The notes beneath the pieces were generated by a model. The model was not told the origin of the DNA. It did not search any database and worked only from the letters and a program-made list of their open reading frames with translations. From NCBI GenBank assembly GCA_000993205.1, contig LBVU01000002.1, forward strand, positions 28,250 to 92,249: a DNA stretch of 64,000 nt. Direction: 5' to 3'. Source of the stretch: Candidatus Woesebacteria bacterium GW2011_GWB1_39_10. Its GTDB lineage: Bacteria; Patescibacteriota; Microgenomatia; UBA8517. The position numbers were made by a program, and so were the translations under genes. The stretch's first letter is position 1. Every line of letters begins with the position of its first letter. This document shows positions 1,569 to 24,287 of the stretch, piece by piece.

Positions 1569-3020
1569 ATGGCAACTTTTGGAGCGGAAATTGAGAAACC
1601 TATATCAGATATAGCTTCTGGTTTACCTCGTGGAATTTCTCAAAAATCATTTACAAGAATTTCAGCAAGTTATAAGAATGGAGAACTGGACTACAGCGAC
1701 ATCCAACCCGAAACGGCAATTGCAGTAAACGCACCAGAGATTGGGCACATAGGTCTAGATAATGGTTTTAATCTCCAAGAAACTTCTACACGTGTTACCA
1801 GGAACTTGGGAGAACTTGAGGCCATCTTAAAAACCGATTTAAAGACCTTACAAAATGTTTTAGCTGAAGAAGGAGCGACTGTTATAAATCTTTCGATTCA
1901 TCCCTTGGGAAAAACTGATTCAGCTACTCATAAAGTTTTTGTTGCGCCAAAAGGTGTTTATAAATATATTGCTCTGAGAGGTTGGGATCACGCTGCAGGA
2001 ATTGACGCTAAAGCACAGAATAGTCCATCAACTGGTGTCGAGCCACAAAACGCAGCAAAAGCTCTCACCGCAGTAATTGGCGCCTCCGCAGCAATGATAG
2101 GACTTTTTGCAAACAGCCCATTCGAGGAAGGTCAAGTAAGCCCATTTAAGGAGACTAGATTAAAAATGTGGGATAGGTTTATGAAAAATTCTACATCGGA
2201 AGGTGATAGGTTAACTGCTAAATTTCCCGAAAAACCATTCTTTACACTAAAAGATTATTTTACTTGGATGTTTGGTCCCGGAACTAATATGCATTTTGTA
2301 ATAGCTTCGGGTGGAAACTACAAAACATTCGGGGATGCAGCAATTATAATTAACGACAATCCATCTGTTTTGAGTTATTTATCAATGGGAAAAGCAGAAG
2401 GGAAATTCTTAAATTCAGGCCAAAAAATTACTATTATACCAGACCTAAAACATATGGAGGCGCTTCAATTTGCACAATTTACCAGTGCAAGAATTAGATG
2501 GCATTTTGATTCATTAAAGGTGAATAAACAGGAATTCCTTAATGCATATAAGAATGATTCTCTTGAGGAATTGTTTACAAACGGCTCGGTTTCTGACATT
2601 TACATTGAAGGTAGAGACCCGGGAGCAAATTTTCCTGATACACATCTAAACTCACTTGGTAATGAATTATCCTGGTCAACTATTATGGCGCCAAGCGCAA
2701 TTCAATCAGGAATAATTAACAATTTAGACGAGGCGCTTCAATATCTCAGAACTTTTAAGTGGCAACATCTTAATCTTTTGAGAGAAGCCGCAATTAAGGA
2801 CGGGTTGCACGGTGAGGTGGGTGGTGTAAAGGTTTTTGAGTTCACAAAAAAAGTTCTTGAAATTTCAGCAAAGGGACTTCCTGTAGGGCAACAAAAATTA
2901 CTAGCGTATCCTGTCCATGTCTTACAAACAAAACAAAACGGAGCGGATAGAGCGCTTGTAGATTATTCCAAAGGAAAATCAATTAAGGATATTGTAAAAT
3001 CAAGAAATGTCTCCGTCTAG
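1569..3020 (+). CDS. Carboxylate-amine ligase of the glutamate-cysteine ligase (GCS/GshA)-like family.
   Basis: The 483-aa protein carries GAEIE near its N-terminus and IHPLG motifs that resemble GCS2/GshA-type ligases. The assignment rests on remembered motifs only. Confidence 0.35.
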   Translation: MATFGAEIEKPISDIASGLPRGISQKSFTRISASYKNGELDYSDIQPETAIAVNAPEIGHIGLDNGFNLQETSTRVTRNLGELEAILKTDLKTLQNVLAEEGATVINLSIHPLGKTDSATHKVFVAPKGVYKYIALRGWDHAAGIDAKAQNSPSTGVEPQNAAKALTAVIGASAAMIGLFANSPFEEGQVSPFKETRLKMWDRFMKNSTSEGDRLTAKFPEKPFFTLKDYFTWMFGPGTNMHFVIASGGNYKTFGDAAIIINDNPSVLSYLSMGKAEGKFLNSGQKITIIPDLKHMEALQFAQFTSARIRWHFDSLKVNKQEFLNAYKNDSLEELFTNGSVSDIYIEGRDPGANFPDTHLNSLGNELSWSTIMAPSAIQSGIINNLDEALQYLRTFKWQHLNLLREAAIKDGLHGEVGGVKVFEFTKKVLEISAKGLPVGQQKLLAYPVHVLQTKQNGADRALVDYSKGKSIKDIVKSRNVSV

Positions 3021-4143
3021 CAAACCTATCGTCATTAAAAAAATAGAAGTAAGACTTTTACGATTGCCTTTAATTACGACCTTCACAACGGGATTTGGAA
3101 CAATCAATTACAAAGAAACAGTTGTGGTCAGGCTTGAAGATTCCGACGGAGTAGTTGGTTGGGGTGAAGGGGCTGCTTTATCTTTTCCGAATTACTCCCC
3201 CGAAACTGCCATTACAACATATTTAGGACTTAAAGAATATTTATTACCATCGATTGTCGGAAAGCGTATTTCTGGTCCTGAAGGTCTCGATAATTTATAT
3301 TCACAAGTAAAAGGTTACCATTTTGCCAAAACAGCAATTGACTGTGCGATGTGGATGATTTGTTCAATCAAGTCCCAACAATCATTGAAACAGCTTCTTG
3401 GAGGAAAAAGTGAGAGTGTCGCTATTGGCGAAAGTATCGGAATTAAAAATTCCATCGATGAAACTTTGGAAGAAATTTCATTAAGACTGGACCAGGGATA
3501 TCAAAGAATAAAAATTAAAATTAAACCTGGCTGGGATGTCGAGCTCGTTAGAAAAGTTAGAGCAAAATTTAGTGACATTCCCTTGATGGTGGATGCCAAC
3601 TCTTCTTATTCATTAAATGATGTTCCCATATTTAAAAAACTTGATAAATTTAACTTAATGATGATTGAACAACCGTTAGGTGATACCGATATTGTTGACC
3701 ACTCGTTTTTGCAAAAAGAAATTACAACCCCTATTTGCCTTGATGAAAGCATTCTGTCAGTGGAGGATGCCAGGAAGGCTATAAAAATAGGGGCATGTAA
3801 AATAATAAATATTAAGCCCGGACGTGTTGGCGGGATTTCAGAATCTAAAAAAATCCACGATTTTTGCCAAGATAATAATATCGGCGTATGGTGCGGTGGA
3901 CTATTAGAAACTGGGATCGGTCGCGCCTTTAATATCGCACTTTCTTCCCTTCCGGGTTTTAAATATCCTGCAGACATGTCTCCGAGTTCGTTTTTTTATA
4001 AAGAAGACTTAATCGATCCAACATACGAAGTGGATAAAAACGGATATATTGCAATACCAACAGCTACAGGTCTTGGCTACAATCTTGAAATGAAACGTAT
4101 TAATAAATATACAAAACAAAAATACAATACAAGGGCATATTGA
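3007..4143 (+). CDS. Enolase-superfamily MR/MLE enzyme, likely an o-succinylbenzoate synthase / N-succinylamino-acid racemase / dipeptide epimerase.
   Basis: It has the KIKIKPG K-x-K catalytic motif, the MVDANSSY metal-ligand region and a length typical of OSBS/NSAR. It overlaps the upstream ligase gene by 14 nt. Confidence 0.65.
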   Translation: MSPSSKPIVIKKIEVRLLRLPLITTFTTGFGTINYKETVVVRLEDSDGVVGWGEGAALSFPNYSPETAITTYLGLKEYLLPSIVGKRISGPEGLDNLYSQVKGYHFAKTAIDCAMWMICSIKSQQSLKQLLGGKSESVAIGESIGIKNSIDETLEEISLRLDQGYQRIKIKIKPGWDVELVRKVRAKFSDIPLMVDANSSYSLNDVPIFKKLDKFNLMMIEQPLGDTDIVDHSFLQKEITTPICLDESILSVEDARKAIKIGACKIINIKPGRVGGISESKKIHDFCQDNNIGVWCGGLLETGIGRAFNIALSSLPGFKYPADMSPSSFFYKEDLIDPTYEVDKNGYIAIPTATGLGYNLEMKRINKYTKQKYNTRAY

Positions 4144-4178
4144 CATTAAAATTTATTTTTGTTAGTCTCCTCTAAACA

Positions 4179-5390
4179 ATGAATGCTGAAAATAAAAAGA
4201 GTGAGGGTTATGTAGCCACTGGTTTGCCAGTTGAATATAGAGGAGAATATGGGCAAATTATAGACTTAGGTCTTGCAGCAAATCCCAGTGGCGCAGCATT
4301 CGATGCTAAGAAATTAGCCGATCTAACTTCTACAAAACAAATCGCAGAATATGATGAAGATGTCCACCATTCGGACATTAAAGACCTGTTAATCGAAGGA
4401 ATTGGTCTTAAAAATATAGGAAACGAATCCGTCATTTTTCATCCAAACGGCAGTTACGGAGCGGGTGATGAGGTTATAAGGGCTTTATCAAACCATTCTC
4501 ACCAACAAGGAAAAACGTTAACGGTTTATGTTCCAACTTATTCTTTTCCGAATGTTGAACAATATGCCGCGCGTAATAATGCCAGGTATGTACCGGTAAT
4601 TTCCGATAAGTCGTTTTTGCAAAGCGATTCTCTTAATGCCGTTCTAGACATGAAAAGTAATCAGTTATCGGGAAATGTTGTTTATGTTGACTATCCAAAT
4701 AACCCCTCAGGCGTTGCGAACAAAGATCTTTTACGAAAAGTTGTAAACCATGTAAGTTTCCACGGAGGAATACCTTTTGTTGATTTGGCGTTTGGTGAAG
4801 TTTTAGGCGATGAATTTAAAGACGGTATTCAATATACGATAGATCGTGGAGGTGTGTGCGTGGGTTCATTAACCAAAACACAGGGCCTGGCTGCTCTACG
4901 TGCAGGTTATATTCTTATGAACCCGGGATTGTCTAAAAACCTATATAGTAAAGGCGAAAAACTTGTATTTGGTCTTCCAGCCCATGTTAAAAATGCCTAC
5001 ACATTGTTGTTCACGGGTTCTGAAGGAAAAACTCTCGCTAGGGCACAAGCTCTTAAGGCGATTAATTATAATCACCAGACAAATAGCAAACTTTATGAAG
5101 CTTTAACAAATTTAGGTCTAAAAATAGCGCCTACTATTTACGAAACCCCCGTGCAAATCGTGGCAAATGCCAACGACGACCTCTTCACCAGGCTTGCATG
5201 TGTAGGAATTAAAAGCGAAAGTTTGAACGAGTATTCTAATACTTTGGGCAAAGAGGCCTCAAAAGGATATGGAAACCAAGCTGTTAGAATATTGACCCCA
5301 AGAGTGGGAATGCTTGAAGAAACAATTAAAAGATTTCGTGTTGCAATGCAATTAACAGACAACCATATTCAATCAAAGGCCAAGAAATAA
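4179..5390 (+). CDS. PLP-dependent class I/II aminotransferase.
   Basis: It carries the YVDYPNNPSGV motif (the NPxNPTG-like aminotransferase signature), is 403 aa long, and has a likely PLP-lysine region around SLTKTQG. Confidence 0.6.
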   Translation: MNAENKKSEGYVATGLPVEYRGEYGQIIDLGLAANPSGAAFDAKKLADLTSTKQIAEYDEDVHHSDIKDLLIEGIGLKNIGNESVIFHPNGSYGAGDEVIRALSNHSHQQGKTLTVYVPTYSFPNVEQYAARNNARYVPVISDKSFLQSDSLNAVLDMKSNQLSGNVVYVDYPNNPSGVANKDLLRKVVNHVSFHGGIPFVDLAFGEVLGDEFKDGIQYTIDRGGVCVGSLTKTQGLAALRAGYILMNPGLSKNLYSKGEKLVFGLPAHVKNAYTLLFTGSEGKTLARAQALKAINYNHQTNSKLYEALTNLGLKIAPTIYETPVQIVANANDDLFTRLACVGIKSESLNEYSNTLGKEASKGYGNQAVRILTPRVGMLEETIKRFRVAMQLTDNHIQSKAKK

Positions 5391-5395
5391 ACACC

Positions 5396-6472
5396 ATGGA
5401 GAGAAAATATTTTAAAGAAAAATTAACTGAACTTGTAGCCATCCCGACTATCAGAGAAAAAGAGATGCTAAAAGAAAGTTCCGAAGCTTTAGATCTCATA
5501 GAAAGTTGGGCCGACTCCGCATTGTCAAAAAGGCGTATTAAAAATGGAAAAACTGAAATTTTACTTTTAGGAAACGGAAATTTACTAAACCCAGATATCG
5601 GTTATTTAGCACACGTGGATGTAGTCGATGCCGACAAAGAAATGTTTAAAATGACCGAGACTGATGGAAAATTTTATGGACGAGGAGTAAGCGATATGAA
5701 ATTTTCGATACCTATTGGAATTGAAATACTAAACAAATTAGCCAAAGATAAAGGCGCTCCAGTTATGACTCTCGCCATAACAACAGACGAGGAAGTCGGA
5801 GGCGGGGATGGAGGAAATTATTTAGCAAATGAAATTAAATTTATTCCTGAAGTTCTTATAGTACCGGACGGAGGAGATGATTTTGTTTTTGTTAATAAAT
5901 CTAAAGGTAAGGCAACTCACGCCTCAACTCCTTGGCTTGGAAAAAATGCATTAACGCCATTAATCAAAATAGCAAGTGGGCTGGGCGCGATATATGATCA
6001 GAATTCTGCATCACCCAATTGGGAAACCACGATGAATTTGGGAGTACTCCAAGGTGGCAAATCGACCAATCAGGTTTGTGACGAAGCTACTCTCAAATTG
6101 GATTTTAGATTTCCCGAGACCAGAAGTGCTAACGAAATATTGGAAGAGGTAAGAAAAGCTTCTGAAAAAATTGATCCCAATCTTTCCATTAAACTTGGTG
6201 CCCAAGGTGACCCAATATATACAGACATAAAAAATCTTGAAGTGACAAGATTTTTAAAAATAGCTAGAGATGTTCTCGGCAGAAATATAAAAATTGAAGG
6301 AGAAAACGGAGCATCTGACGCTAGATACTGGGCCAAGTATAATATTCCTATAATAATGAAGCCGAATGGAGGAGGTATACATAGTGACAAAGAGTGGATC
6401 GATGTTGAATCTTGTCTAACGTATTATGAAATATTATCAAAGTATGTAAACGAATTCACTAGTATAATTTGA
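5396..6472 (+). CDS. M20 family metallopeptidase / deacylase (ArgE/DapE-like).
   Basis: It has the M20 metal-ligand motifs HVDVV, GRGVSDMK and TTDEEVGG. A paralogue sits at 12196..13356. Confidence 0.7.
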   Translation: MERKYFKEKLTELVAIPTIREKEMLKESSEALDLIESWADSALSKRRIKNGKTEILLLGNGNLLNPDIGYLAHVDVVDADKEMFKMTETDGKFYGRGVSDMKFSIPIGIEILNKLAKDKGAPVMTLAITTDEEVGGGDGGNYLANEIKFIPEVLIVPDGGDDFVFVNKSKGKATHASTPWLGKNALTPLIKIASGLGAIYDQNSASPNWETTMNLGVLQGGKSTNQVCDEATLKLDFRFPETRSANEILEEVRKASEKIDPNLSIKLGAQGDPIYTDIKNLEVTRFLKIARDVLGRNIKIEGENGASDARYWAKYNIPIIMKPNGGGIHSDKEWIDVESCLTYYEILSKYVNEFTSII

Positions 6473-6595
6473 CAAGAGATAATCTAATGTTAGAATACCA
6501 ATTAGTATGAATCCTAAAGATTTCGCATTCAAATTTTTCTTTATTGAAAAGGAGCTTAAATAAAGCGCCACAGGGCACTTTTTTTTATTTATAAA

Positions 6596-8113
6596 ATGGA
6601 AAGATTTTTACCTGCAAACAAAGATAAAGAACAAGCTCGAGTTTTGCAATATTTTATTGACCCTCAAAATCCCAACATGCAGTATAAACAATTTGCGAGA
6701 AACTTGACGTCAATGTTTTTGGGAGCAAACCCTTCAGCTGAACAACAAAAAATCGCCAGACAACTCATGGGGATTTTTGATGAAGTAAAAGACGCAAGAC
6801 AATTTAATGAAACATATATCGGACACATGCTGTCTGAGGCATCAATTCCTGGAATGTGGGGTTATATGCTTGCTACAAGACTTGGGAGCAATACCGTAGC
6901 CCGTGAAGTTTCTGAATTGGAATCAAGACTGGAACCGGAAGCTATTCGAGGATTGATGAAAATGGTTGGCTATGACCAAAACGAAGCAAGTGGAACTTTT
7001 ACTTCGGGAGGCTCAATTGCAGTTTTTACTGCAATTGATGTTGCAGTCAAAAGAATAAAAAGACAATTCGACGAGGCGGAAAAACAAATAGACAAACCAT
7101 TGGTAATTTTATACAACAAATTTGCCCATTATAGTTTTCATAAAGCTGTAGATGCCTTGGGCGGGCCAGCTAGAATGATCGAAAAAATGGAGGTAGAATC
7201 TCCCGGTTTCAGAATGAATCCTCGCGATCTTGAAAAAAAGATCGAACAGAGTTTGAAAGAAGGCAAGATCGTCGCAGCCGTGTTTGCTATTGCCGGGGAA
7301 ACAGAAACCGGAATCGTCGATGATCTAACCCAAATATCAAAGATATCAAAAAAACATGGCATTTTTACTATTGCCGACGGAGCTTACGGAGCACCATACA
7401 GATTGTCTCGCAAAAGTTCACTTTTCAAATCCTTAAACGAATATGATGCAATCACTATCGATGGCCACAAGGCACTTTACACACCCTATTCAAATGGGGC
7501 AGTACTTTTTAAAGATAAACACAACCACGTTCTTCTAAATCTGGGGGTCAAAGCGCCATACGTTAAGTTTGAAGAAAAAGAAGAGGCAATTTTAAGAAAT
7601 TTATCTTATAAAAATCTCGGGTTTAGTCTTGGAGAAAAAAGATTCGAAGGATCAGGTGGAGCTGGGTCAATCCTTTCAACTGTAGCAGTATTGAGAACTC
7701 TAGGGCTTGAAGGGCTGACCACCGTCTACGACATCACGCTAGATAGAATCGAATATTTGAATGACAGATTGAATCGTTCTAAAATACTAATGCCCATACA
7801 TGAACCAGATGTAAATTTGCAGTGCTTTAGAATTAGACCAGATGTTGAACACTTGTTCGGTGTAAACGATAACAGTCGAAGATCAGATATTGTTGAAAAA
7901 AGTAGAATCGATGATGTAGATAAAGGGTTGAGAGGCAAAGGCGGGTTTTTCTTCTCTTCAACAGATTTTGATCTTCCCAATTATTATGGAAAAATTGAGC
8001 AAACTGCGGTTTGGAGAGCTTGTCTTATGAATCCAAGAACTTCTAACAAAATATTGGACCAGGCCGTAGCCGAACTTGAAAGTTCAGTTCTTAAAAGATT
8101 AGGGTCAAAATAG
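6596..8113 (+). CDS. PLP-dependent group II amino-acid decarboxylase.
   Basis: It has the TSGGSIAV motif and DGHKALYTPY (the S-x-HK PLP-lysine motif), and its 505 aa fit the GAD/MfnA/TyrDC family. Confidence 0.65.
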   Translation: MERFLPANKDKEQARVLQYFIDPQNPNMQYKQFARNLTSMFLGANPSAEQQKIARQLMGIFDEVKDARQFNETYIGHMLSEASIPGMWGYMLATRLGSNTVAREVSELESRLEPEAIRGLMKMVGYDQNEASGTFTSGGSIAVFTAIDVAVKRIKRQFDEAEKQIDKPLVILYNKFAHYSFHKAVDALGGPARMIEKMEVESPGFRMNPRDLEKKIEQSLKEGKIVAAVFAIAGETETGIVDDLTQISKISKKHGIFTIADGAYGAPYRLSRKSSLFKSLNEYDAITIDGHKALYTPYSNGAVLFKDKHNHVLLNLGVKAPYVKFEEKEEAILRNLSYKNLGFSLGEKRFEGSGGAGSILSTVAVLRTLGLEGLTTVYDITLDRIEYLNDRLNRSKILMPIHEPDVNLQCFRIRPDVEHLFGVNDNSRRSDIVEKSRIDDVDKGLRGKGGFFFSSTDFDLPNYYGKIEQTAVWRACLMNPRTSNKILDQAVAELESSVLKRLGSK

Positions 8114-8238
8114 TTGACAACGTCTTTAAAAAAAACTAAGCTATACGTAATGACTTTGATTTCTAACAGATTTTTCTTTTTTACCTTCCTTTCAACGGGA
8201 GGTAATCTTATGTAGCTAAAAAACAAAGCAAATAAGGG

Positions 8239-8262
8239 ACCTCCCCAAAAGGGAGGTTTTTT
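8239..8262 (+). terminator. Rho-independent terminator.
   Basis: CCTCCC / GGGAGG stem, loop CAAAA, followed by TTTTTTG. It lies downstream of the decarboxylase gene. Confidence 0.5.
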
Positions 8263-8286
8263 GTTGGTTAGAAAGGAGACAAAAAC

Positions 8287-8463
8287 ATGCGCGAAACAGA
8301 AATACAAAATACAACTGCATCTAAAGTTGTAACAACTGTAGATGCCGTCATCCACGATGCAATTAAAACCAGTCCTCCTATTGATAAAAAAAGAGGAGAT
8401 CTTATTCGCGGAGAAACATATTATTTAACCGGAGGCGACCCAGATAAAAGAAATCAAATATAG
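8287..8463 (+). CDS. Small hypothetical ORF of 58 aa.
   Basis: It has a good SD (AGGAGA, 7 nt upstream of ATG) and translates as MRETEIQNTTASKVV.... There is no recognisable family. Confidence 0.2.
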   Translation: MRETEIQNTTASKVVTTVDAVIHDAIKTSPPIDKKRGDLIRGETYYLTGGDPDKRNQI

Positions 8464-9074
8464 TTTGCCGGAACGATAATTGGCAAAACTCTCACATCAC
8501 TATTGCTAGTTTTTCCCGGTCTATAGGCCACCAATGGTAAACCATTAAAAGACCTACCTACATACAAATAATTTTCACCAGGACCAATTGTTGTGGTGGA
8601 TGCGTTATCGTAGCTTCCGGCTCTTCTAAAAAAACTCATATTTGTTTTTGAGGTGTAACCACAATCAAGGTCTAAGTAATCCAACGCCGTCCCAATAATT
8701 GCTTTTACACCAGGAATGATCTGAGAAAGTGACTGGCTGTATTTCTTCGTCATTTCCTGTTGCCCCTGAAGCGTCAAACCACCCGAACCGGGAAGAAATA
8801 AATCATCAACATTAATAGCGACCTCTGACGCTTTACATCGCTCATTTTCAATTTCAAGTCCATTGTGCCAATTAGACCAAAAACCTACACCATTCATTTT
8901 CAATGATGCAACTGATTCGCCTCTGAGCTCGAAAATTTGAAAACCTCGCTTTTCTAATTCAATTCGTTGTTCGGAAGAAAACCTTGTAATTGCAAATACC
9001 TCCCGGCCTGATAAAATATCCTTCATGTTGATACTATAACATGGCATGTCAATCTGGGAAAACAATATAGTCAT
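8454..9074 (-). CDS. Hypothetical protein.
   Basis: A 206-aa ORF with no recognisable motifs. It is divergent from the 9046..9456 ORF. Confidence 0.4.
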   Translation of the reverse strand: MTILFSQIDMPCYSINMKDILSGREVFAITRFSSEQRIELEKRGFQIFELRGESVASLKMNGVGFWSNWHNGLEIENERCKASEVAINVDDLFLPGSGGLTLQGQQEMTKKYSQSLSQIIPGVKAIIGTALDYLDLDCGYTSKTNMSFFRRAGSYDNASTTTIGPGENYLYVGRSFNGLPLVAYRPGKTSNSDVRVLPIIVPANYI

Positions 9075-9456
9075 GGAACGTCACAGTGAGGGAAAAAGGA
9101 TTATCACAAGATTAAACAGCAACCAAAATCTTATCGAGATTGGTGAACCTGGCAACTGTCGAATATGGACAACTTTGGCATTTAAAATAGTCCGATCAGC
9201 GTTTCCAAACACACAACTCGAAGCCAGAGAAGTGGATATTTCCGAATACCTACAACACACTTTTTTAAAAATCACACCTATCAATGAAGAGCCTCTTTTG
9301 TGTGATGGACTGGGGCAGAAAAACATCCTCCTTTTTTTTGATTACGAATCCGAAGCTCCAAAACATCTTCAAAATAGTCGCATGGATATACTTAACAGTT
9401 ATTTAAAATTTGACAACTCCAAATTCCGTGATAATATACATTTGTTAACATCGTAA
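9046..9456 (+). CDS. Hypothetical protein; the alternative start is at 9073.
   Basis: A 136-aa ORF with no recognisable motifs. Confidence 0.3.
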   Translation: MSIWENNIVMERHSEGKRIITRLNSNQNLIEIGEPGNCRIWTTLAFKIVRSAFPNTQLEAREVDISEYLQHTFLKITPINEEPLLCDGLGQKNILLFFDYESEAPKHLQNSRMDILNSYLKFDNSKFRDNIHLLTS

Positions 9457-9465
9457 AAGCTGTGA

Positions 9466-9781
9466 AGCAGTGAAGTAGTTAAGTTGAGTGGTAAATAGAG
9501 ACGAGGCGGTTGGTGCAAGACCTCGCAAGCTCAAATTAATGAATTACCCTGCAGAGCCGGTTCGACAAAATCGAGCCCGGGAGTGCCCGTAAACGCACTA
9601 GAGTCTGTTGGAAATCAAAGGACTTGAATAATGAGGGTTATCTCATAATTTCTAGTCCCGCGGAGCCTAAAGGCGAAGTGGGATTTTTTGTTGAGATAAC
9701 TAAAGAAGGGTGGTAACGCCTTTAAAGGGCCCCTTCAGTTTCTGAGATTTTGTCTCGGGAATTGGAGGGGCTTTTTTGTTT
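9466..9781 (+). promoter_or_regulatory. Candidate T-box riboswitch leader: Stem I with specifier loop, stem IIA/B-like pseudoknot, stem III, T-box sequence, antiterminator/terminator.
   Basis: Stem I pairs GCAG 9467-70 with CUGC 9549-52, UUGAG 9484-88 with CUCAA 9530-34, and CGAGG/CCUCG at the apex. The internal loop has AGUA on the 5' side and GAA on the 3' side. An AGAGA element lies at 9497-9501. An F-box-like CCGUAAA lies at 9587-93 inside a pseudoknot-capable CGGG AGUGC CCG UAAAC GCACU. Stem III pairs GUUAUCUC 9637-44 with GAGAUAAC 9693-9700. The T-box-like sequence AGAAGGGUGGUAACGCC at 9704-9720 forms an antiterminator (AAGGG/CCCUU with a 7-nt UGGUAAC bulge). That antiterminator is mutually exclusive with the terminator GCCCCUUC 9729-36 / GGAGGGGC 9764-71 plus U6 9772-77. 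SD GGGGGTG and the ATG at 9803 follow. Confidence 0.5.
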
Positions 9782-9802
9782 TCCCAAAAGGGGGTGATAA
9801 AC

Positions 9803-10876
9803 ATGAATAAAGAAATATTACGCGAACAATTGATAAATCTTGAGACGCGAAATGCCGGAATGAAAATTCTTAACCCGGGAGACTTAACGTCCGAAAAAAC
9901 TGCAGACAATGTCATTAAGTTATTAAAAGCGATGTATGTTGAACATGGTATTACCAAAGATAAGAAAAAACTAGTAAAGGATATTGAAGTCGGAAACGTT
10001 TTAAGTTGGTTTGCCCAAAAAGACGAAAATTTTGTCGCAACAGCTTCTCTTGTAAAACAAGACGATGGCGCTTGGGAGCTCGGTAGAGCAGTATCGCTTG
10101 ATCGCGGCAATGGACTAGGCAAAAGGGTAATTCTTGAAGCCTTAAAATTTCATCTAAAAAATCATTCTAATGAGGCGTTAATTGCTGAAGTTCGCGCCGC
10201 AGACGAATTCAAGCAAGTTCCGTCCGGACTTGCAACTCAAAAGATATTTTTTGGTACTATCAACTCGATTTTGCCAATTACACCCTTTGCAATTGCTCCG
10301 TTATTTGCGCACGGGGATCCACTAAGAAATGAGCAATTTATTCTTTCGGCAAGTGATATAAAGCCGGGAAAAACTATCAGTGAAAAAATTTCTGACTCTA
10401 TTAACAATAGGTCAACCAAGGGAACTATTCCAAGGTTACAGGTGATACAAACTGCTCCTTTTCGTCTGGCGATTCCTAATGATAACGGAAAAAAAGCTAG
10501 TCAAGTAGCATCAGAGTCCGTTGATTTTAAAGGTTGCTCACTATTTCCGGTAGAAGTTACAGACCGAAACATGCCGTTAATTGGTATGTTGTCTTCGAGA
10601 TCTGACATGGTTTTGTGTGGAGTTGACCGTCTATTGGGTAATGAAGGGAAACCGGTAGTATTAATCGCCACATTAGGTTTCCACGGCAATATTTTGACTG
10701 GTCAGTCATCAGAGTTGGCGCCCACTGAAGTTTCTGAAGTGCTTCCGACTGAAATGCGGAAAGACACACAAGCAATTGCTGATAAATTTTCGCATATACG
10801 CGAAGCGCAACTAAACGAGTTTAGAGATGGACTGCACCCTTATTTCCGTACAGACATAATTAAGTTATCACTTTAA
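9803..10876 (+). CDS. Hypothetical protein with a GNAT-like motif; its last ~14 codons are encoded by the left end of the IS3-family element.
   Basis: SD GGGGGTG lies 6 nt upstream of ATG 9803; the ORF track extends to 9776. The N-terminal region carries RGNGLGKRVILEAL, which resembles GNAT motif A. Coding runs into the IS left inverted repeat (10833..). Confidence 0.5.
   Translation: MNKEILREQLINLETRNAGMKILNPGDLTSEKTADNVIKLLKAMYVEHGITKDKKKLVKDIEVGNVLSWFAQKDENFVATASLVKQDDGAWELGRAVSLDRGNGLGKRVILEALKFHLKNHSNEALIAEVRAADEFKQVPSGLATQKIFFGTINSILPITPFAIAPLFAHGDPLRNEQFILSASDIKPGKTISEKISDSINNRSTKGTIPRLQVIQTAPFRLAIPNDNGKKASQVASESVDFKGCSLFPVEVTDRNMPLIGMLSSRSDMVLCGVDRLLGNEGKPVVLIATLGFHGNILTGQSSELAPTEVSEVLPTEMRKDTQAIADKFSHIREAQLNEFRDGLHPYFRTDIIKLSL
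10833..10861 (+). repeat. IS3 left terminal inverted repeat (IRL).
   Basis: It begins TG and includes the 10-nt core CGTACAGACA, which recurs inverted at 12081-12090. Confidence 0.55.
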
Positions 10877-10916
10877 ACTATCGGTTAAACTGTAGCCAGA
10901 AAGGAGGTGAAAAATT

Positions 10917-11234
10917 ATGTCAGGTACTAAACGAAAATTTACCAGAGAATTTAAACTTCAGGTTGTCACTGAAATTGAATCAGGGACTAAGACCAGAGCT
11001 CAAATTACTCGTGAATATGAATTATCAGAGGGACTAGTTACTAAGTGGGTTGCGGTCTATCGAGCTAATCCTCAAACTGCCTTTACAGGTAGACTGGTAG
11101 CCAGTGAGGAGGAAAGACTAAAAATTAAAATTAAAGAGCTTGAGTGGGCATTGGGTAGAAAGACAATGGAGGTGGAAACCCTGAAATTTACACTGGAAGG
11201 ATTAAATGTTAAAAAAGGGGGCTTTATGAAGTAG
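10917..11234 (+). CDS. IS3-family transposase OrfA (HTH DNA-binding).
   Basis: The sequence FTREFKLQVVTEIESGTKTRAQITREYELSEGLVTKWV followed by a leucine-zipper-like LKIKIKELEWAL is a classic IS3/IS911 OrfA. RBS AAGGAGGTG. Confidence 0.85.
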   Translation: MSGTKRKFTREFKLQVVTEIESGTKTRAQITREYELSEGLVTKWVAVYRANPQTAFTGRLVASEEERLKIKIKELEWALGRKTMEVETLKFTLEGLNVKKGGFMK

Positions 11235-12097
11235 CAGAAACATTTTGTCAAAAAGGACAATCTATTACAGATTTGTGTAGAACCCTACATGTCTCAAGGA
11301 GCGGGTATTATGAATATCTGAAAAACAAAAATCTTAAAAATATGGATGAAGAATTAGTTAAAAACCAAATTGAACAAATTGCCCTGGAATATCCAAGATA
11401 TGGATACAGAAGGATTACTGAGGAACTTAAAAGAAGAGATTTTATAGTTAATCACAAAAGGGTCCTAAAACTGATGCAAGAAGAAGATTTACTTTGCAAA
11501 CACAAAAAGAAGTTTATGGTTACAACTGATTCTAACCATCCACTTCCAATTTACCCAAACTTAATTAAAGGAATGATTGTGACTAGGATTAACCAAATCT
11601 GGGTGGCAGACATTACTTATATCCCCCTGACCACTGGCAAATTTGTATTTTTAGCAGTAGTACTGGATCTTTATTCAAGAAAAGTAGTTGGTTGGCATTT
11701 AGGAAGTGACTTATCATCCATTTTAGTTTGTCATGCCCTGCAGATGGCAATACTCAGCCGAAAACCACCTGCAGGGCTAACTCATCATTCAGACCGTGGA
11801 GTTCAATATGCCAGTTATGAGTATACAAATATTTTAAAACTAAATAATATTCAAATTTCTATGAGTAGAAAGGGTAATCCATATGACAATGCAGTTTGTG
11901 AAAGTTTTAACAAAACATTCAAATGGGATGAGGTTAGGCTAAATAAATACAACAATTATTTTGAAGCTAAAGAAGCCATTGCAAACTATATTGAGCAGAT
12001 TTACAATGCAAAAAGGTTACATTCAAGCCTAAACTACAGGCCACCGAATGAATTTGAAGAGAGTTTAATTAACAGTCAATTGTCTGTACGTTATTAG
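11213..12097 (+). CDS. IS3-family transposase OrfB (DDE integrase core), probably expressed as an OrfAB fusion by -1 frameshifting.
   Basis: The -1 frame opens at 11213, directly over AAAAAAG (11211-17). The rve-type motifs are LCRTLHVSRSGYY, HSDRGVQYAS and GNPYDNAVCESFN. Confidence 0.85.
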   Translation, partial: KRGLYEVAETFCQKGQSITDLCRTLHVSRSGYYEYLKNKNLKNMDEELVKNQIEQIALEYPRYGYRRITEELKRRDFIVNHKRVLKLMQEEDLLCKHKKKFMVTTDSNHPLPIYPNLIKGMIVTRINQIWVADITYIPLTTGKFVFLAVVLDLYSRKVVGWHLGSDLSSILVCHALQMAILSRKPPAGLTHHSDRGVQYASYEYTNILKLNNIQISMSRKGNPYDNAVCESFNKTFKWDEVRLNKYNNYFEAKEAIANYIEQIYNAKRLHSSLNYRPPNEFEESLINSQLSVRY

Positions 12098-12104
12098 GGG
12101 TTCA
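12075..12104 (+). repeat. IS3 right terminal inverted repeat (IRR); it overlaps the orfB C-terminus.
   Basis: The reverse complement TGAACCCCTAATAACGTACAGACAATTG matches IRL at about 19 of 24 positions and ends ...TTCA. Confidence 0.55.
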
Positions 12105-12195
12105 CTCCAAGAAAATGGCACAGAGGTTTTGGGAAATTGAGATGAATTGGTCAAAACAAGATGAGAGGTGGAAAGGCTAATACTTTGCATCTCTT

Positions 12196-13356
12196 ATGGC
12201 ACAAGGGATGCGTAGCCTGTCGGTAAGTGATAGAATCGGAATGGTAAAGATATATAAACTTATGAAAAAAGAAGAATTTATTAGTCAGATTGCAAAACTT
12301 GTTTCCTTTGAAACTGTTACCGGTAACGTAGCAGAAAACTCAGAGGCCTTGAGTTATGTGGAATCCTTAATAAGCAAGGACGCGGAAGTAAAAAGAATCA
12401 AGAATAAAGACGCCGAAATTTTAATTGCCGGTAATTCCAACATAATGACGCCGGATGTTGGATATATGGTGCACATGGACGTAGTTGCTGGCAAACCTGA
12501 ACAATTTAAGGTCTCCATAAAAGCAGATAAAATATTCGGTCGGGGTACCAGCGACATGAAGTTTTCTATTCCAATCGGAATCTCTCTTTTGAATCAGCTT
12601 ATTGCCACTAAATCAAAAATTACTTTTTCTTTAGCTATTACAACAGATGAAGAAATTGGAGGATTTGCAGGTGGAGCGTTTCTTGCAGAAAAACTTAAAT
12701 TCAGACCGAAAGTTTTAATCGTTCCGGATGGCGGAGATAATTTAACATTTGTAAACAAAGCCAAAGGAGTTTGCCAATTGGTTATTACCGCTAAAGGCTC
12801 CCCAGCCCACGCCAGCAGGCCATGGGTGGGTAGAAACGCCCTGGACATGCTTTCTACACTTTCTGTGGAGCTTTTGAAAATTTACGGCAAAAACAATATC
12901 AAAGAAAATTGGAATACGACCATGAATACGGGCCAAATTCAGGGTGGAATTTCTATCAACCAGGTCTGCCCAGTTGCAGTAATGAAAGTTGATTTCAGAT
13001 ATCCCGAAACTGACAGCATAGAAAAGATTACGAAAACTGTTTCCGGTATTGCCGCCAAAATCAGCAATAACATAACCATAGAAAAGGCCTCAACCGGTTT
13101 GCCCACTTTTACAAATACCGATTTGTTTGTTGTCAAGGATTTCCTAAAGACAATGGAAAAAGCATACGGCAAAAAGATCGTAGTTACACACACATACGGA
13201 GCTTCCGATGCCCGCCATTTTGCCAAATTTAATGTTCCTGTTTTAATGATGAAACCTATGGGTGGCGAGATCCACTCAGAAACAGAATGGGTAAGTATTT
13301 CTTCTTCATTGAAATTTTACGATGGACTGTTAGAATTCATATATGGACAAAATTGA
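12196..13356 (+). CDS. M20 family metallopeptidase / deacylase, a paralogue of 5396..6472.
   Basis: It has HMDVV, GRGTSDMKFSIPIGI and TTDEEIGG motifs and aligns along its whole length with the 5396 gene. Confidence 0.7.
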   Translation: MAQGMRSLSVSDRIGMVKIYKLMKKEEFISQIAKLVSFETVTGNVAENSEALSYVESLISKDAEVKRIKNKDAEILIAGNSNIMTPDVGYMVHMDVVAGKPEQFKVSIKADKIFGRGTSDMKFSIPIGISLLNQLIATKSKITFSLAITTDEEIGGFAGGAFLAEKLKFRPKVLIVPDGGDNLTFVNKAKGVCQLVITAKGSPAHASRPWVGRNALDMLSTLSVELLKIYGKNNIKENWNTTMNTGQIQGGISINQVCPVAVMKVDFRYPETDSIEKITKTVSGIAAKISNNITIEKASTGLPTFTNTDLFVVKDFLKTMEKAYGKKIVVTHTYGASDARHFAKFNVPVLMMKPMGGEIHSETEWVSISSSLKFYDGLLEFIYGQN

Positions 13357-22089: not shown

Positions 22090-22791
22090 ATGGTGGGTCA
22101 ACGAAAACATGATATAATTTTATTGATGAAGCTGTTCAAGATCATAACAATCGGGGCAATCATACTTCTTATAACTATTCTGGCCGGCTTGTCTTTCCAA
22201 TATTACAAACAGAGTAAACTTCTTCAGGAATCCTCAAATAACCTTAATGGGCCCAAAAAAATAGAGTTAAACCTTAAGGGGATAGTAAAAAAAGGCAAAG
22301 ATATCGATCCTCAAAAATCGTATTGCCCGAACGGCATTTATATTGTTACTACTGACAAAACCTATCAACTAAGAACCCCGGATGATTTAAATGAAAAGGC
22401 CTCAACTGCATACGCAATGTACCGCGACGCAGAAGTTGCCCTGACTGCCAAATTTCAGGATATATCGCCAAACTGCGGCAGTGTTAAAAACTGCGGCTGT
22501 GACGAATTTGTGCTGGTTGAAAAAATTGAGAAAACAAAGGATACTCCGAGCAGCTTTAACTCATATAACGGAAGGATTGTCTGTCTACCGTTGGTAGAAG
22601 GAAATGTAAATTCTGCCAACTGCGCGCTTGGCCTGGCCACAGATGACGGCAAGTATTACATTTTGGAGGACGTGCCGGACAGCCTTATCGTCGAGGGAAA
22701 CGATGTCAAAATCACCGGAGAGCTTGTCAAGGAAAAAACCGCTACAAAATATCGGATCGATGGTGTAATAAACGTAGTGGAAGTTAAATAA
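22090..22791 (+). CDS. Hypothetical membrane-anchored Cys-containing protein.
   Basis: It has an N-terminal TM (IITIGAIILLITILAGL) and several Cys pairs. The likely start is 22123. Confidence 0.4.
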   Translation: MVGQRKHDIILLMKLFKIITIGAIILLITILAGLSFQYYKQSKLLQESSNNLNGPKKIELNLKGIVKKGKDIDPQKSYCPNGIYIVTTDKTYQLRTPDDLNEKASTAYAMYRDAEVALTAKFQDISPNCGSVKNCGCDEFVLVEKIEKTKDTPSSFNSYNGRIVCLPLVEGNVNSANCALGLATDDGKYYILEDVPDSLIVEGNDVKITGELVKEKTATKYRIDGVINVVEVK

Positions 22792-22835
22792 AGTTCAAAC
22801 TTGACAGATCTGAATTAATATACTATTATAGGACT

Positions 22836-24233: not shown

Positions 24234-24287
24234 CCAAATTGCCATAAAAGACTGGCGAACTTCTCATCAAAGTAGTAGTATTTAAGT

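Follow-up and report, generated by a model that had tools for sequence, protein, structure and literature searches.

A ligase-enolase-M20 gene cluster and a separate tyrosine T-box operon in Candidatus Woesebacteria: a possible ATP-dependent acylate-racemise-deacylate module for amino acids

We analysed a 64-kb stretch of a Candidatus Woesebacteria genome (referred to here as the window), in which the amino acid-processing genes form two independent units rather than a single pathway: unit A (1569-8113), with five genes, and unit B (9410-14509). A preliminary description had treated most of this interval as one pathway. The genes that it listed are all present, in the order and at the positions given, in a genome of the candidate phyla radiation (CPR), and its family assignments were all confirmed, but two of the genes, those for the GNAT-motif protein and the second M20, belong to a separately regulated tyrosine T-box operon. 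Features are on the forward strand unless indicated otherwise. The left flank, outside the system, is thrS (threonine--tRNA ligase; 1-1463; TIGR00418, 607 bits), whose frame is open from base 3 and whose 5' end lies beyond the window; the complete gene in a related assembly (L001) codes for 594 aa. A penicillin-binding protein gene is found upstream in the lineage of the window.

The first gene of unit A (1569-3020) codes for a carboxylate-amine ligase of 483 aa with a glutamate-cysteine ligase (GCL) fold. The protein matches Pfam GCS2 (35.8 bits, cut-off 21), and all NCBIfam equivalogs scored far below their cut-offs, the models for GCL, EgtA, and YbdK giving 15 to 24 bits against 176 to 371. 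Foldseek searches with its AlphaFold2 model (pLDDT 93.4) retrieved the plant GCL 2gwc as the top match (TM 0.71/0.78), followed by YbdK, GshA, PafA, and GS. Residues E7, E9, E71, E347, and R349 are invariant. The family is a small one, counting 85 representatives (E ≤ 1e-30) out of 1.84 billion. Its proteobacterial homologues, 33 to 41% identical, have no enolase or M20 gene nearby; therefore, the family is not restricted to the role that we propose for the ligase here, that of a putative ATP-dependent N-acylating enzyme.

Overlapping the ligase gene by 14 nt, and translationally coupled to it through this overlap, is a gene (3007-4143) for an enolase-superfamily enzyme of 378 aa. It belongs to the N-acylamino acid racemase/o-succinylbenzoate synthase (NSAR/OSBS) subfamily and has the KxK motif, as had been described: TIGR01928 gave 343 bits (cut-off 200.65), both MR_MLE_N and MR_MLE_C match, and the motifs KIKIKPG, DANS, EQP, LDES, and NIKPGRVGG are present, with K161/K163, K263, and R266 retained. 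In the PDB, it is best matched by 1wuf, 1wue, and 1sja (E values from 1e-96 to 1e-89), with 41% identity to 1wuf. OSBS enzymes of Listeria and E. faecalis are its nearest relatives of solved structure, and characterised NSARs prefer hydrophobic substrates (PMC12006748). All enolases linked to the ligase fall in a single clade, and we propose that the enzyme is an N-acyl-amino-acid racemase.

The next two genes code for a class I (HisC-like) PLP aminotransferase (4179-5390, 403 aa; Pfam Aminotran_1_2, 60 bits) and M20a, an ArgE/DapE-type M20 metallo-deacylase (5396-6472, 358 aa; Pfam Peptidase_M20 and M20_dimer). The aminotransferase has the conserved NPNNPxG motif, the PLP lysine K233, and R370, and a profile search against the PDB placed histidinol-phosphate and phenylalanine aminotransferases on top. 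M20a carries the metal-binding and catalytic motifs HVDVV, GRGVSDMK, DEE, and GGIHS; its best NCBIfam matches, below cut-off, are to the DapE/ArgE subfamily, and in a neighbour-joining tree it clusters with the tyrS-linked M20b type of unit B. We consider it a candidate N-acyl-L-amino-acid hydrolase. The last gene (6596-8113) codes for a group II (fold-type I) PLP-dependent amino acid decarboxylase of 505 aa (Pfam Pyridoxal_deC, 100 bits) with the PLP-lysine motif DGHK and about 65 close homologues in CPR. Its top NCBIfam matches, to PanP, DABA, and tyrosine decarboxylases, all fall far short of the cut-offs, and its PDB matches are mixed, including DABA, GADL1, CSAD, and tryptophan decarboxylases.

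Promoter-like sites precede the ligase gene (1522-1550; TTGACA-17-TAAACT, 10/12 matches) and the decarboxylase gene (6469-6496; TTGACA-16-TAGAAT with TG upstream, 11/12), both being consensus matches only in a region where the total count of such sites is not above chance. Downstream of the decarboxylase gene there is a small ORF of 58 aa (8287-8463), and genes of like size (58 to 64 aa) were called at the same place in L001, L100, and L101. It is followed on the opposite strand by a conserved gene of 206 aa (8454-9074) that matched neither Pfam nor NCBIfam; L100 and L101 carry homologues (35 to 47% identity) in the corresponding location. A 136-aa ORF (9046-9456) lies upstream of the T-box, and its homologues (36 to 46% identity) are directly 5' of the leader in L082, L091, L092, and L101.

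Unit B is a separate operon with a tyrosine T-box, a GNAT-fold fusion gene, M20b, and tyrS, kept in about 15 loci, none of which has a ligase or enolase gene within 10 kb. The tyrosine-specific T-box leader (9453-9773) matches RF00230 at 9453-9737 (94.4 bits, gathering score 93). Its specifier loop, UGAAUUACCCUGC, presents the codon UAC, and its intrinsic terminator (9727-9773) has a 20-bp stem and then a T-run. A promoter-like site (9410-9437; TTGACA-16-TAATAT, TG upstream) ends 16 nt 5' of the Rfam match. The same leader is found in L082-L093, L095, and L101, with covariation in its flanking helix.

The gene behind the leader (ORF 9776-10876, true start at 9803) belongs to a family of about 40 members and matched nothing in Pfam. 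Its AlphaFold2 model (pLDDT 91.5), with an N-terminal GNAT domain and a C-terminal domain, retrieved the GNATs 1ghe, 1tiq, and 1xeb with Foldseek (TMt 0.6 to 0.7 over about 180 residues), and the predicted fold is that of a GNAT. This family was absent beside the other 18 ligase-enolase loci compared. The second M20 gene and the GNAT-motif gene had been placed after the T-box and the insertion sequence, and the former is indeed a paralogue of M20a, but the insertion sequence lies inside the 3' end of the GNAT-fusion gene. This IS3-family element (10828-12109; NF033516 transpos_IS3, 309 bits; orfA 10917-11234, orfB 11273-12097) is bounded by terminal inverted repeats of 29 nt (10828-10856 and 12081-12109, 79% complementary). 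It has replaced the last 21 codons of the gene, the original 3' end of which survives at about 12113-12178; removing the element and 4 bp in silico restores the C-terminus ...FWEIEMNWSKQDERWKG, matching the homologues. The identical insertion is present in the independent assemblies L001, L003, and L004.

M20b (12196-13356; Pfam M20 and M20_dimer) is 44 to 48% identical to M20a and has the motifs HMDVV, GRGTSDMK, DEE, and HSETE. It is the constant partner of tyrS in the tyrosine T-box operon: in L084, L088, L089, and L101, homologues with 64 to 69% identity are flanked by tyrS on one side and by the GNAT-fusion gene or a different gene on the other. In the window, tyrS (tyrosine--tRNA ligase; 13343-14509) overlaps the 3' end of M20b by 14 nt, its relatives being 51 to 57% identical (tblastn) and its homologues having Pfam tRNA-synt_1b and S4, and there is a promoter-like site at 13309-13336 (TTGAAA-16-TAGAAT, TG upstream).

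The conserved core of unit A is the ligase-enolase pair, which is adjacent and codirectional in 19 compared loci of CPR and allied genomes, with an intergenic gap of -14 to +13 nt in 15 of them. This recurrence exceeds what chance clustering would give. The two proteins coevolve, their pairwise distances being correlated with r = 0.85, a value reached by none of 2,000 Mantel permutations. About 17 of these 19 loci also have an M20 gene in the cluster. Most CPR loci also include two orphan families without Pfam or PDB matches, F3 (560 to 900 aa), directly 5' of the ligase gene, and F7 (about 320 aa), between the enolase and M20 genes; hence, the common form of the pathway has steps beyond the scheme proposed below. 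Other neighbours are stand-alone glutamine-amidotransferase-type hydrolases in three clusters (L017, L063, and L026), a VanX-like M15 dipeptidase in L032, an Asp/Glu racemase in L034, and a beta-lactamase-like gene in L026. The aminotransferase and decarboxylase had been described as parts of the pathway; they are present in unit A but are missing from most ligase-enolase-M20 loci, being accessory genes of a few lineages and not part of the core.

A different picture was found in L100 and L101, which retain in the same syntenic slot orthologues of the aminotransferase (56 to 63% identity), M20 (62 to 63%), and decarboxylase (45 to 67%). There, the ligase and its enolase are replaced by a protein of 302 to 306 aa and another NSAR-type enolase, 42% identical to that of the window (tblastn) and outside the ligase-linked clade. 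The first of these replacements is named "predicted GNAT superfamily acetyltransferase" in IMG for L101 and matches Pfam Acetyltransf_1 weakly (E = 0.0098) in L100. The gene table of a third lineage lists a 308-aa protein overlapping an enolase, beside decarboxylase and aminotransferase genes. From these weak matches and the source annotation, the 302- to 308-aa proteins are probably GNAT acyltransferases. The ligase had been regarded as an added step; this exchange in at least two relatives leads us to read it as an ATP-dependent stand-in, most likely taking the place of a GNAT acyltransferase.

The explanation that we favour, and to which we give about an even chance of being correct, combines an acylate-racemise-deacylate module in unit A with a tRNA-Tyr-controlled operon in unit B, which would be switched on by uncharged tRNA-Tyr. 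In unit A, the GCL-fold ligase would acylate an amino acid on its alpha-amino group at the expense of ATP, the carboxylate being most probably the gamma-carboxyl of glutamate (alternatively, succinate or aspartate). The NSAR/OSBS-type enzyme would then interconvert the D and L forms of the resulting N-acyl-amino acid, and M20a would hydrolyse one epimer, presumably L, to the free amino acid, regenerating the acyl donor; the net conversion would be D-amino acid + ATP to L-amino acid + ADP + Pi. Where they occur, the aminotransferase and decarboxylase would process the amino acid further into a keto acid or an amine. These steps, like the acyl donor, substrate, and direction, are predicted from gene families and neighbourhoods; in support of the proposal, the families of the three core enzymes act on N-acyl-amino acids or form amide bonds. 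The known pathway consisting of a GNAT succinyltransferase, an NSAR/OSBS enzyme, and an M20 L-desuccinylase (bioRxiv 10.1101/2022.03.03.481873) converts D- to L-amino acids in Geobacillus kaustophilus by the same logic, but with a succinyl-CoA-dependent GNAT transferase instead of an ATP-dependent ligase. The analogy with it, already drawn in the preliminary description, is the best available reading.

Some indications of the molecules involved come from the neighbours. The acyl group is possibly gamma-glutamyl, since the structural matches of the ligase (GCL, GshA, GS, and PafA, which ligates Pup) are generally known to activate the gamma-carboxylate of glutamate and the amidotransferase-type hydrolases occur in three clusters. 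The VanX-like dipeptidase, Asp/Glu racemase, and beta-lactamase-like genes hint at a D-amino acid. A possible substrate is tyrosine, if not a different aromatic amino acid. Three hints point to tyrosine: no more than a few kilobases separate tyrS from the cluster in the window, in L100, L101, L028, and L034, and on the P0334 contig; M20a groups with the M20b type; and NSARs favour hydrophobic substrates.

Unlikely, but deserving consideration, is a biosynthetic route of the protect-modify-deprotect type, with the logic of DapD-DapC-DapE-DapF-LysA or LysX-LysJ-LysK. The ligase would add an N-acyl protecting group, the aminotransferase would convert a distal keto or amino function of the protected intermediate, the racemase would set the configuration, M20a would deprotect, and the decarboxylase would form the end product, for example an amine, a diamine, or lysine (from diaminopimelate). 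Translational coupling joins the aminotransferase gene to the M20 gene in the window, L100, L101, and L007, in the order of ArgD-ArgE, DapC-DapE, and LysJ-LysK, which fits this route at least as well as simple deracemisation; the two genes are adjacent or overlapping in L010 as well. Succinyl-diaminopimelate desuccinylase and ArgE/DapE head the NCBIfam matches of both M20s, [LysW]-lysine hydrolase follows further down for M20b, and the aminotransferase weakly matches the DapC and LL-DAP aminotransferase models. Furthermore, the five genes stay together in L007/L081 despite rearrangement (the aminotransferases of L007 and L010 being only 22 to 25% identical to that of the window), and an extra class III aminotransferase gene is directly 5' of the ligase gene in L009 and L010. 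However, all these model scores are far below equivalog cut-offs, the aminotransferase and decarboxylase are not core, no kinase, reductase, or dap/arg gene accompanies the cluster, and the usual substrates of the HisC-like family are histidinol phosphate and aromatic amino acids.

We consider it improbable that the three-step module runs from L to D. It would then supply a D-amino acid, for instance D-Glu, D-Ala, or a non-canonical one, to the cell wall or to a product of the gamma-glutamyl-D-amino-acid kind. An Asp/Glu racemase (L034), a VanX-like gene (L032), MurB, Alr, and MurC near the P0334 cluster, and the penicillin-binding protein gene upstream in the lineage of the window would suit this direction, but the characterised ArgE/DapE-type M20 deacylases that we know of are L-specific, and several genomes have Alr or Glu racemase beside the cluster, so the need for a second, costlier route is not evident. 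The linkage to tyrS and a tyrosine T-box fits instead the supply of an L-amino acid for translation.

The chances are slimmer still that the ligase is a true synthetase of gamma-glutamylcysteine, or of another low-molecular-weight thiol or dipeptide, among functionally unrelated amino acid enzymes. Its UniRef name (glutamate--cysteine ligase), the GCS2 match, the plant GCL fold match, and the weak EgtA and YbdK matches point that way, but the GCL, EgtA, and YbdK scores are a small fraction of the cut-offs, there is no glutathione synthetase gene nearby, and neither the coupling and coevolution with an NSAR-type enolase nor the exchange for a probable GNAT plus NSAR would be explained. Finally, that the enolase is the o-succinylbenzoate synthase of menaquinone synthesis, as the name of the TIGR01928 model it passes and its OSBS relatives might suggest, is hardly credible, given that this model spans the whole promiscuous NSAR/OSBS subfamily, that the constant partners of the enzyme are the ligase or probable GNAT plus an M20, that no men gene was found in the 64-kb window or in about 25 related loci, and that CPR bacteria are, to our knowledge, generally described as being without respiratory chains and quinone synthesis.

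If the acylate-racemise-deacylate reading is true, the replacement of a GNAT by a ligase would suit an organism of a group that, as far as we know, is generally described as having no TCA cycle, and unit A would be an ATP-driven version of the known D-to-L amino acid pathway in a tiny-genome groundwater bacterium.

The genes between thrS and tyrS had been read in the preliminary description as one amino-acid-processing pathway spanning 1569-13356. Every gene named there was recovered by ORF listing and profile searches, and the "CPR-like" host was rightly recognized, the genome being that of a Candidatus Woesebacteria within the candidate phyla radiation (CPR). However, the single pathway was rejected because the genes belong to two units, A and B, that are inherited independently. 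The gene for thrS runs past the left edge of the window, with its frame open from base 3. It is followed by unit A (1569-8113), five co-directional genes encoding a GCS2-family ligase (1569-3020), an enolase-superfamily protein (3007-4143, overlapping the ligase gene by 14 nt), a class I aminotransferase (4179-5390), an M20 peptidase (M20a, 5396-6472) and a group II PLP decarboxylase (6596-8113). After the decarboxylase come two small ORFs and one opposite-strand gene without assigned function. Homologs of the 206-aa gene at 8454-9074 (-) lie in the same place 3' of the decarboxylase in two related loci (L100 and L101), where an ORF of 58-64 aa is also called in the position of window 8287-8463 (+); both genes could be part of unit A. 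Unit B (9410-14509) consists of a T-box leader (9453-9737, RF00230), a GNAT-fusion gene (9803-10876) whose 3' end contains an IS3 element (10828-12109), a second M20 gene (M20b, 12196-13356) and tyrS downstream of it (13343-14509). The remainder of the window codes for type IV pilus genes, gyrase, a RelA/SpoT protein and transketolase, and also holds several ORFs of 230-600 aa without a Pfam match (22090-26075) and a very large one of 2050 aa with a GTG start (51527-57679).

The first gene of unit A matches Pfam GCS2 with 35.8 bits (cut-off, 21) over residues 71-204 only. Its AlphaFold2 model (pLDDT 93.4) was closest in Foldseek to the plant glutamate-cysteine ligase (GCL) 2gwc (TM 0.71/0.78, probability 1.00), followed by YbdK (1r8g) and then by E. 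coli GshA, PafA/Dop and glutamine synthetases; the predicted fold is that of the GCL/YbdK superfamily. The scores against equivalog models are very low (EgtA, 24 bits with a cut-off of 371; YbdK family, 19 with 176; PRK13515, 15 with 371) and a profile search returned no sequence-level PDB match, so that by sequence the ligase would not be an ortholog of the characterized GshA, plant GCL, EgtA or YbdK. Residues E7, E9, E71 and E347 are invariant and H111 nearly invariant among 16 homologs and, judged by motif position, the acidic ones are putative equivalents of the Mg ligands of GshA. The family is small, with 85 proteins at E<=1e-30 and 663 at E<=1e-3 in a profile search of 1.84 billion representatives, and the nearest proteins beyond it are GCL-like and likewise uncharacterized.

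When one genome per species was scanned, 71 loci proved to encode a ligase relative; tblastn and ORF clustering divided them into two groups. Besides loci from CPR (Patescibacteria), the CPR-type group takes in one Oligoflexia MAG and several MAGs whose taxonomic assignment is questionable. CPR-type clusters with the same orphan neighbors were seen in L011, L012, L016, L017, L020 and L038 (labeled Gammaproteobacteria), L014 (Weeksellaceae) and L009 (Micrarchaeia); these labels look wrong for the gene content, and mis-binning or mislabeling is possible. The proteobacterial homologs (33-41% identical) lack enolase and M20 genes within 10 kb and adjoin MFS transporter, metallophosphoesterase and glycosyltransferase genes, as in Azospirillum (L080, 5524-11722), where the ligase relative sits between an MFS transporter and metallophosphoesterase/glycosyltransferase genes without a racemase. 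Since the members in Proteobacteria have no racemase neighbor, the family has at least one other role; their context offers no pointer to the ligase substrate.

Placed within its superfamily, the second gene of unit A proved to be of the N-acyl-amino-acid racemase/o-succinylbenzoate synthase (NSAR/OSBS) type that the preliminary description had proposed. It scores 343 bits with TIGR01928 (cut-off, 200.65), is 41% identical to Listeria lin2664 (1wuf, E 1e-96), matches the Amycolatopsis NSAR 1sja at 9e-89 and the E. faecalis OSBS at E ~1e-89 to 1e-96, and shares 37-50% identity with characterized NSAR/OSBS members. By these matches it genuinely belongs to the subfamily, which lies in the MLE subgroup of the enolase superfamily. 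It retains K161-x-K163, the metal ligands D189/E214/D239, the second base K263 and the second-shell R266, within the motifs KIKIKPG, DANS, EQP, LDES and NIKPGRVGG. The Glasner laboratory has tied second-shell R266 to racemase activity, and characterized NSARs prefer hydrophobic substrates (PMC12006748). A pattern search found K-x-K and N-x-K-P-G-R-V-G-G in 18 of the 19 ligase-linked enolases, with one substitution in the remaining locus (L007). The ligase-linked enzymes form a clade of their own, marked by an invariant Glu 142 (window numbering), immediately preceding the conserved Ser in the G-x-S-I-G strand, and an invariant Trp 176 downstream of K-x-K. Neither residue is found in GNAT-linked or Firmicute NSAR/OSBS enzymes, where these positions are hydrophobic or variable, and both offer a lead as candidate determinants of acyl-group recognition. 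Two paralogs were also noted: a second enolase inside the ligase-linked clade in the Oligoflexia locus L018 (12477-13679 (-)), and a divergent one in the Saccharimonadales locus L032 (3219-4385; TIGR01928 124 bits, below the cut-off) that adjoins a VanX-like M15 dipeptidase.

In the CPR-type group, the NSAR-type enolase gene lies immediately 3' of the ligase gene on the same strand; of the 19 loci compared, 15 have the two genes spaced by -14 to +13 nt. The pairwise distance matrices for ligase and enolase are correlated (r=0.85; 0 of 2000 Mantel permutations as high). Since the pair is conserved and co-evolving, chance juxtaposition was rejected. One locus (L020, ligase 42% identical) has no enolase match in the stretch compared. 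An M20 gene is present in ~17/19 CPR-type clusters, and the aminotransferase and decarboxylase are rare (three or four lineages each); therefore, the conserved core consists of ligase, racemase and M20. The aminotransferase and decarboxylase are still linked, although rearranged, in the closest species-level relative, and in an Amesbacteria genome (ligase 68% identical) the decarboxylase, aminotransferase and M20 genes are transcribed divergently from ligase and enolase.

In other CPR genomes the pair is most often accompanied by two orphan families, F3 and F7, neither of which is present in the window and for which no Pfam or PDB profile match was obtained. F3 (560-900 aa) lies directly 5' of the ligase in nine loci (for instance L061 8298-9977, L016 7477-9996 and L063 14732-17425) and F7 (~320 aa) between enolase and M20 in four (among them L014 12773-13714 and L016 12738-13742). 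Stand-alone glutamine-amidotransferase-type hydrolases also occur, of class I (Peptidase_C26-like) in L017 and L063 and of class II in L026. Other neighbors are a VanX-like M15 dipeptidase (L032), an Asp/Glu racemase (L034), a beta-lactamase-like gene (L026), Radical SAM genes near the cluster (L015 and probably L038) and, in L028, a class II DAHP synthase together with tyrS. No T-box or other riboswitch was found 5' of the ligase clusters at Rfam gathering scores in 19 related loci.

Among the remaining enzymes, the aminotransferase is HisC-like and has both the PLP lysine and the carboxylate-binding arginine. M20a and M20b contain the catalytic and dimerization domains of the family and its motifs (H-x-D, G-x-G-x-x-D-x-K, D-E-E and a C-terminal His). 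Their best scores against the DapE/ArgE/LysK equivalogs are 124 and 140 bits (cut-off, 381) and against the DapE-ArgE subfamily model 123 and 131 bits (cut-off, 217.6); they are classed here as predicted ArgE/DapE-type deacylases, short of equivalog identity with DapE, ArgE or LysK. At about residue 170, M20a (5396-6472) lacks ~10 residues (VCQLVITAKG) that in M20b stand at the start of the dimerization/lid domain. The decarboxylase matches Pyridoxal_deC with 100 bits (cut-off, 27) and has the D-G-H-K PLP-lysine motif, but it reaches no equivalog cut-off (TIGR03811, 68 bits against 905).

Tracing the decarboxylase family into its genomic contexts led to L100 and L101, relatives in which the same slot as in the window is occupied (PBP, serS, the cluster, an opposite-strand gene without assigned function, tyrS and recG). 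Identities of 56-63% for the aminotransferase, 62-63% for M20 and 45-67% for the decarboxylase mark these three as clear orthologs of the window proteins. In place of the ligase, however, the first gene encodes a protein of 302-306 aa. The L101 copy is named "predicted GNAT superfamily acetyltransferase" in IMG, only the L100 copy has a weak Pfam Acetyltransf_1 match (E=0.0098), and a PDB profile search with the two sequences returned only the GNAT YqjY, weakly (E=1.1). On the basis of these weak matches and the IMG name, both are probably GNATs, a tentative call; they gave no NCBIfam match, and hhalign found no relation to the family of the GNAT fusion at 9803. The enolase of L100 and L101 passes TIGR01928, is 42% identical to that of the window (tblastn) and falls outside the ligase-linked clade. 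In a third lineage (P0334 contig), the gene table lists a decarboxylase and an aminotransferase next to a 308-aa protein whose gene overlaps that of an enolase; M20 and tyrS are paired just 5' of them. Ahead of a conserved aminotransferase-M20-decarboxylase trio, a two-gene cassette has thus been exchanged: it holds either a probable GNAT with its own NSAR or the GCL-fold ligase with its own NSAR. This swap is the strongest evidence available that the ligase provides the N-acylation step.

Unit B is organized around its leader, which scores 94.4 bits with RF00230 (gathering score, 93) and has the specifier loop UGAAUUACCCUGC, in which UAC (Tyr) takes the codon position when aligned to the Rfam consensus. 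A promoter-like site precedes it and a strong terminator follows (9727-9773), so the region 9453-9773 is predicted to be a tyrosine-specific T-box. The order leader, GNAT fusion, M20 and tyrS is found in ~15 related loci with the same UAC specifier loop, and the leader is conserved with a covarying flanking helix in at least 14 (L082-L093, L095 and L101), although most of these leaders fall just short of the Rfam gathering score and had to be picked out by inspecting motifs and alignments. Ligase and enolase genes are missing within 10 kb of the operon in all of the ~15 unit B relatives. In L101 this leader is followed by other genes, yet the series still closes with M20-tyrS; therefore, M20 and tyrS are the constant members of the operon. 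In L082 (8284-12389) the operon runs on into a group II decarboxylase and two tyrS paralogs (432 and 384 aa), and prephenate dehydratase genes lie just 5' in L082 and L083. In L083 (8057-10154) and L102 (9945-14138) the GNAT-fusion-M20 pair comes with a PEP-utilizers mobile-domain protein (105-110 aa) and two unassigned proteins (~250 and 320-340 aa), a set adjoined by a 493-aa protein with faint Hpr_kinase_C and Ldh_1_N matches.

The GNAT-fusion gene (9803-10876, true start at 9803) has no Pfam match and belongs to a family of only ~40 proteins. Its AlphaFold2 model (pLDDT 91.5) shows an N-terminal GNAT fold and an unassigned C-terminal domain, and Foldseek matched it to many GNAT structures (probability 1.00, TMt 0.6-0.7). 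The acyl-CoA-binding motif A, R-G-N-G-I/L-G-K, is conserved in the family, and a distant relative in L102 matches Acetyltransf_1 at E=6e-10. The model thus supports a GNAT-fold protein, and the GNAT motif noted earlier is real. As the acylating enzyme of unit A, however, the protein was rejected because it never accompanies the ligase-enolase pair elsewhere. The IS3 element (NF033516, 309 bits) has two ORFs, orfA with an HTH and orfB with an rve domain, between terminal inverted repeats at 10828-10856 and 12081-12109. Deleting it together with 4 bp restores the reading frame and a homolog-like C terminus (interrupted gene, 9803-10876 plus ~12113-12178). The insertion parts M20b and tyrS from the T-box leader and, being common to several independent metagenome assemblies, appears fixed in the population. 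A promoter-like site just 5' of tyrS may, as a speculation, keep it expressed.

For unit A we propose that the ligase would use ATP to acylate an amino acid at its alpha-amino group with a carboxylate, the racemase would bring the N-acyl-D and N-acyl-L forms to equilibrium, and M20 would hydrolyze one of them, presumably the L form, with the outcome that a D-amino acid would be converted into the L-amino acid at the expense of ATP. GCL, GshA, glutamine synthetase (GS) and PafA all activate the gamma-carboxylate of glutamate. Considering that these are the structural matches of the ligase and that amidotransferase-type hydrolases, of a kind known to cleave gamma-glutamyl amides, occur in three related clusters, we favor as a hypothesis a gamma-glutamyl group as the acyl moiety, with succinyl or beta-aspartyl as alternatives. 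The nearness of tyrS to the cluster in six lineages, the grouping of M20a with the tyrS-linked M20b type in a neighbor-joining tree, the HisC-like aminotransferase and the hydrophobic preference of NSARs suggest tyrosine or another aromatic amino acid as a hypothetical substrate. A fully specified version, in which the ligase makes gamma-glutamyl-D-amino acids, the enolase clade is a hitherto unrecognized gamma-glutamyl-amino-acid racemase of the NSAR/OSBS subfamily and the thrS-tyrS island is a tyrS-linked, T-box co-regulated system for detoxification and salvage of D-tyrosine (or aromatic D-amino acids), is rather unlikely to hold as a whole. If true, the island would let an auxotrophic CPR symbiont turn scavenged bacterial D-tyrosine into L-tyrosine for translation.

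The main rival to D-to-L conversion is a scheme of protection and deprotection, in which the acyl group would shield the alpha-amino group while the aminotransferase acts elsewhere on the molecule and the decarboxylase finishes the product. The tight coupling of aminotransferase and M20 and the DapE-, ArgE- and LysK-like best matches of the M20 enzymes are in keeping with it, but aminotransferase and decarboxylase are missing from most loci and no dap or arg genes are present, which leaves this scheme doubtful. A module running in the opposite direction, from L to D, seems quite improbable. Very improbable too is a genuine gamma-Glu-Cys synthetase, which would leave the co-evolving racemase and the cassette swap unexplained. 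Finally, a menaquinone OSBS role for the enolase, considered in the preliminary description as MenC proper with a full menaquinone pathway, has no support and was dismissed, as men genes are absent from the window and from ~25 related loci.

The proposed D-to-L conversion resembles several known systems in part. The Geobacillus pathway described in 2006, as outlined in bioRxiv 10.1101/2022.03.03.481873, combines a GNAT succinyl-CoA:D-amino-acid N-succinyltransferase, an NSAR/OSBS and an M20 enzyme. The likeness to it drawn in the preliminary description holds in that unit A has an NSAR/OSBS enzyme and an ArgE/DapE-type M20 in one cluster and, in the proposed logic, an N-acyl-amino acid is made, racemized and broken. 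It fails in a defining feature because there is no GNAT in the same operon: the first gene encodes a GCL-fold ligase, predicted to be ATP-dependent, instead of an acyl-CoA-dependent GNAT, so that by this comparison unit A would replace the GNAT by an enzyme of an unrelated superfamily with a different energy source. Moreover, the racemase belongs to its own clade (E142, W176), the acyl group is probably not derived from succinyl-CoA, an aminotransferase and a decarboxylase are added, and the host is a CPR bacterium, whereas the known hosts are Firmicute, Chloroflexus-type and actinobacterial species. The classical version, in which a probable GNAT comes first, seems to be present in L100 and L101 (and in P0334, whose gene table is alike).

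The carrier-protein pathways of Thermus and Sulfolobus use the ATP-dependent ligases LysX/ArgX, the aminotransferase LysJ and the M20 hydrolase LysK. LysX, an ATP-grasp enzyme, joins the substrate alpha-amino group to the gamma-carboxyl of glutamate as a removable tag, and LysK cleaves the gamma-glutamyl-amino-acid bond. Unit A likewise has a presumably ATP-dependent ligase followed by an aminotransferase and an M20 hydrolase. However, its ligase is GCL-fold and not ATP-grasp, the LysX tag is the C-terminal glutamate of the carrier LysW and no such carrier is seen in unit A, the Lys pathway has no racemase, and its kinase and reductase steps are missing from unit A. In putrescine use (PuuA/PuuD) and ergothioneine synthesis (EgtA/EgtC), a ligase of the glutamine-synthetase/GCL superfamily is paired with a glutamine-amidotransferase-type hydrolase. 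The unit A ligase is of the same structural superfamily and three related clusters have amidotransferase genes, but PuuA/PuuD and EgtA/EgtC work without a racemase, the usual hydrolase in the ligase clusters is an M20, and the substrates of PuuA and EgtA are amines or thiols as opposed to amino acids keeping a free alpha-carboxylate. In the Enterococcus TDC (tyramine) cluster, a tyrS-like gene and a tyrosine-responsive leader stand beside a tyrosine decarboxylase (PMC3315439). The window also has tyrS under a tyrosine-sensing leader near a group II decarboxylase, and in L082, where a decarboxylase and two tyrS paralogs directly follow the T-box operon, the arrangement recalls these clusters, but in the window there is no Tyr/tyramine antiporter, the decarboxylase is not close to TIGR03811, and the T-box of the window also drives GNAT-fold and M20 genes.

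In the searchable literature, nothing was found on the pairing of a ligase with an NSAR, on racemases acting on gamma-glutamyl-amino acids or on salvage of D-amino acids in CPR. If true, the proposed conversion would be a second design for deracemization, with ATP and a GCL-fold ligase in place of succinyl-CoA and a GNAT, and a natural control exists in the relatives whose corresponding slot is filled by the probable GNAT version. It would also give a first function to a small uncharacterized branch of the GCL superfamily and probably a new substrate class to NSAR/OSBS, a much-studied model of enzyme promiscuity. The proteins are small, soluble-looking enzymes, and testing them in vitro is feasible without culture of the organism. 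A tyrosine T-box over GNAT-fold and M20 genes together with tyrS would widen the T-box regulon in a poorly studied phylum. CPR organisms are regarded as dependent on building blocks that they scavenge, and a D-to-L route using D-amino acids from the cell walls or exudates of their neighbors would be a concrete, testable part of this scavenging lifestyle.
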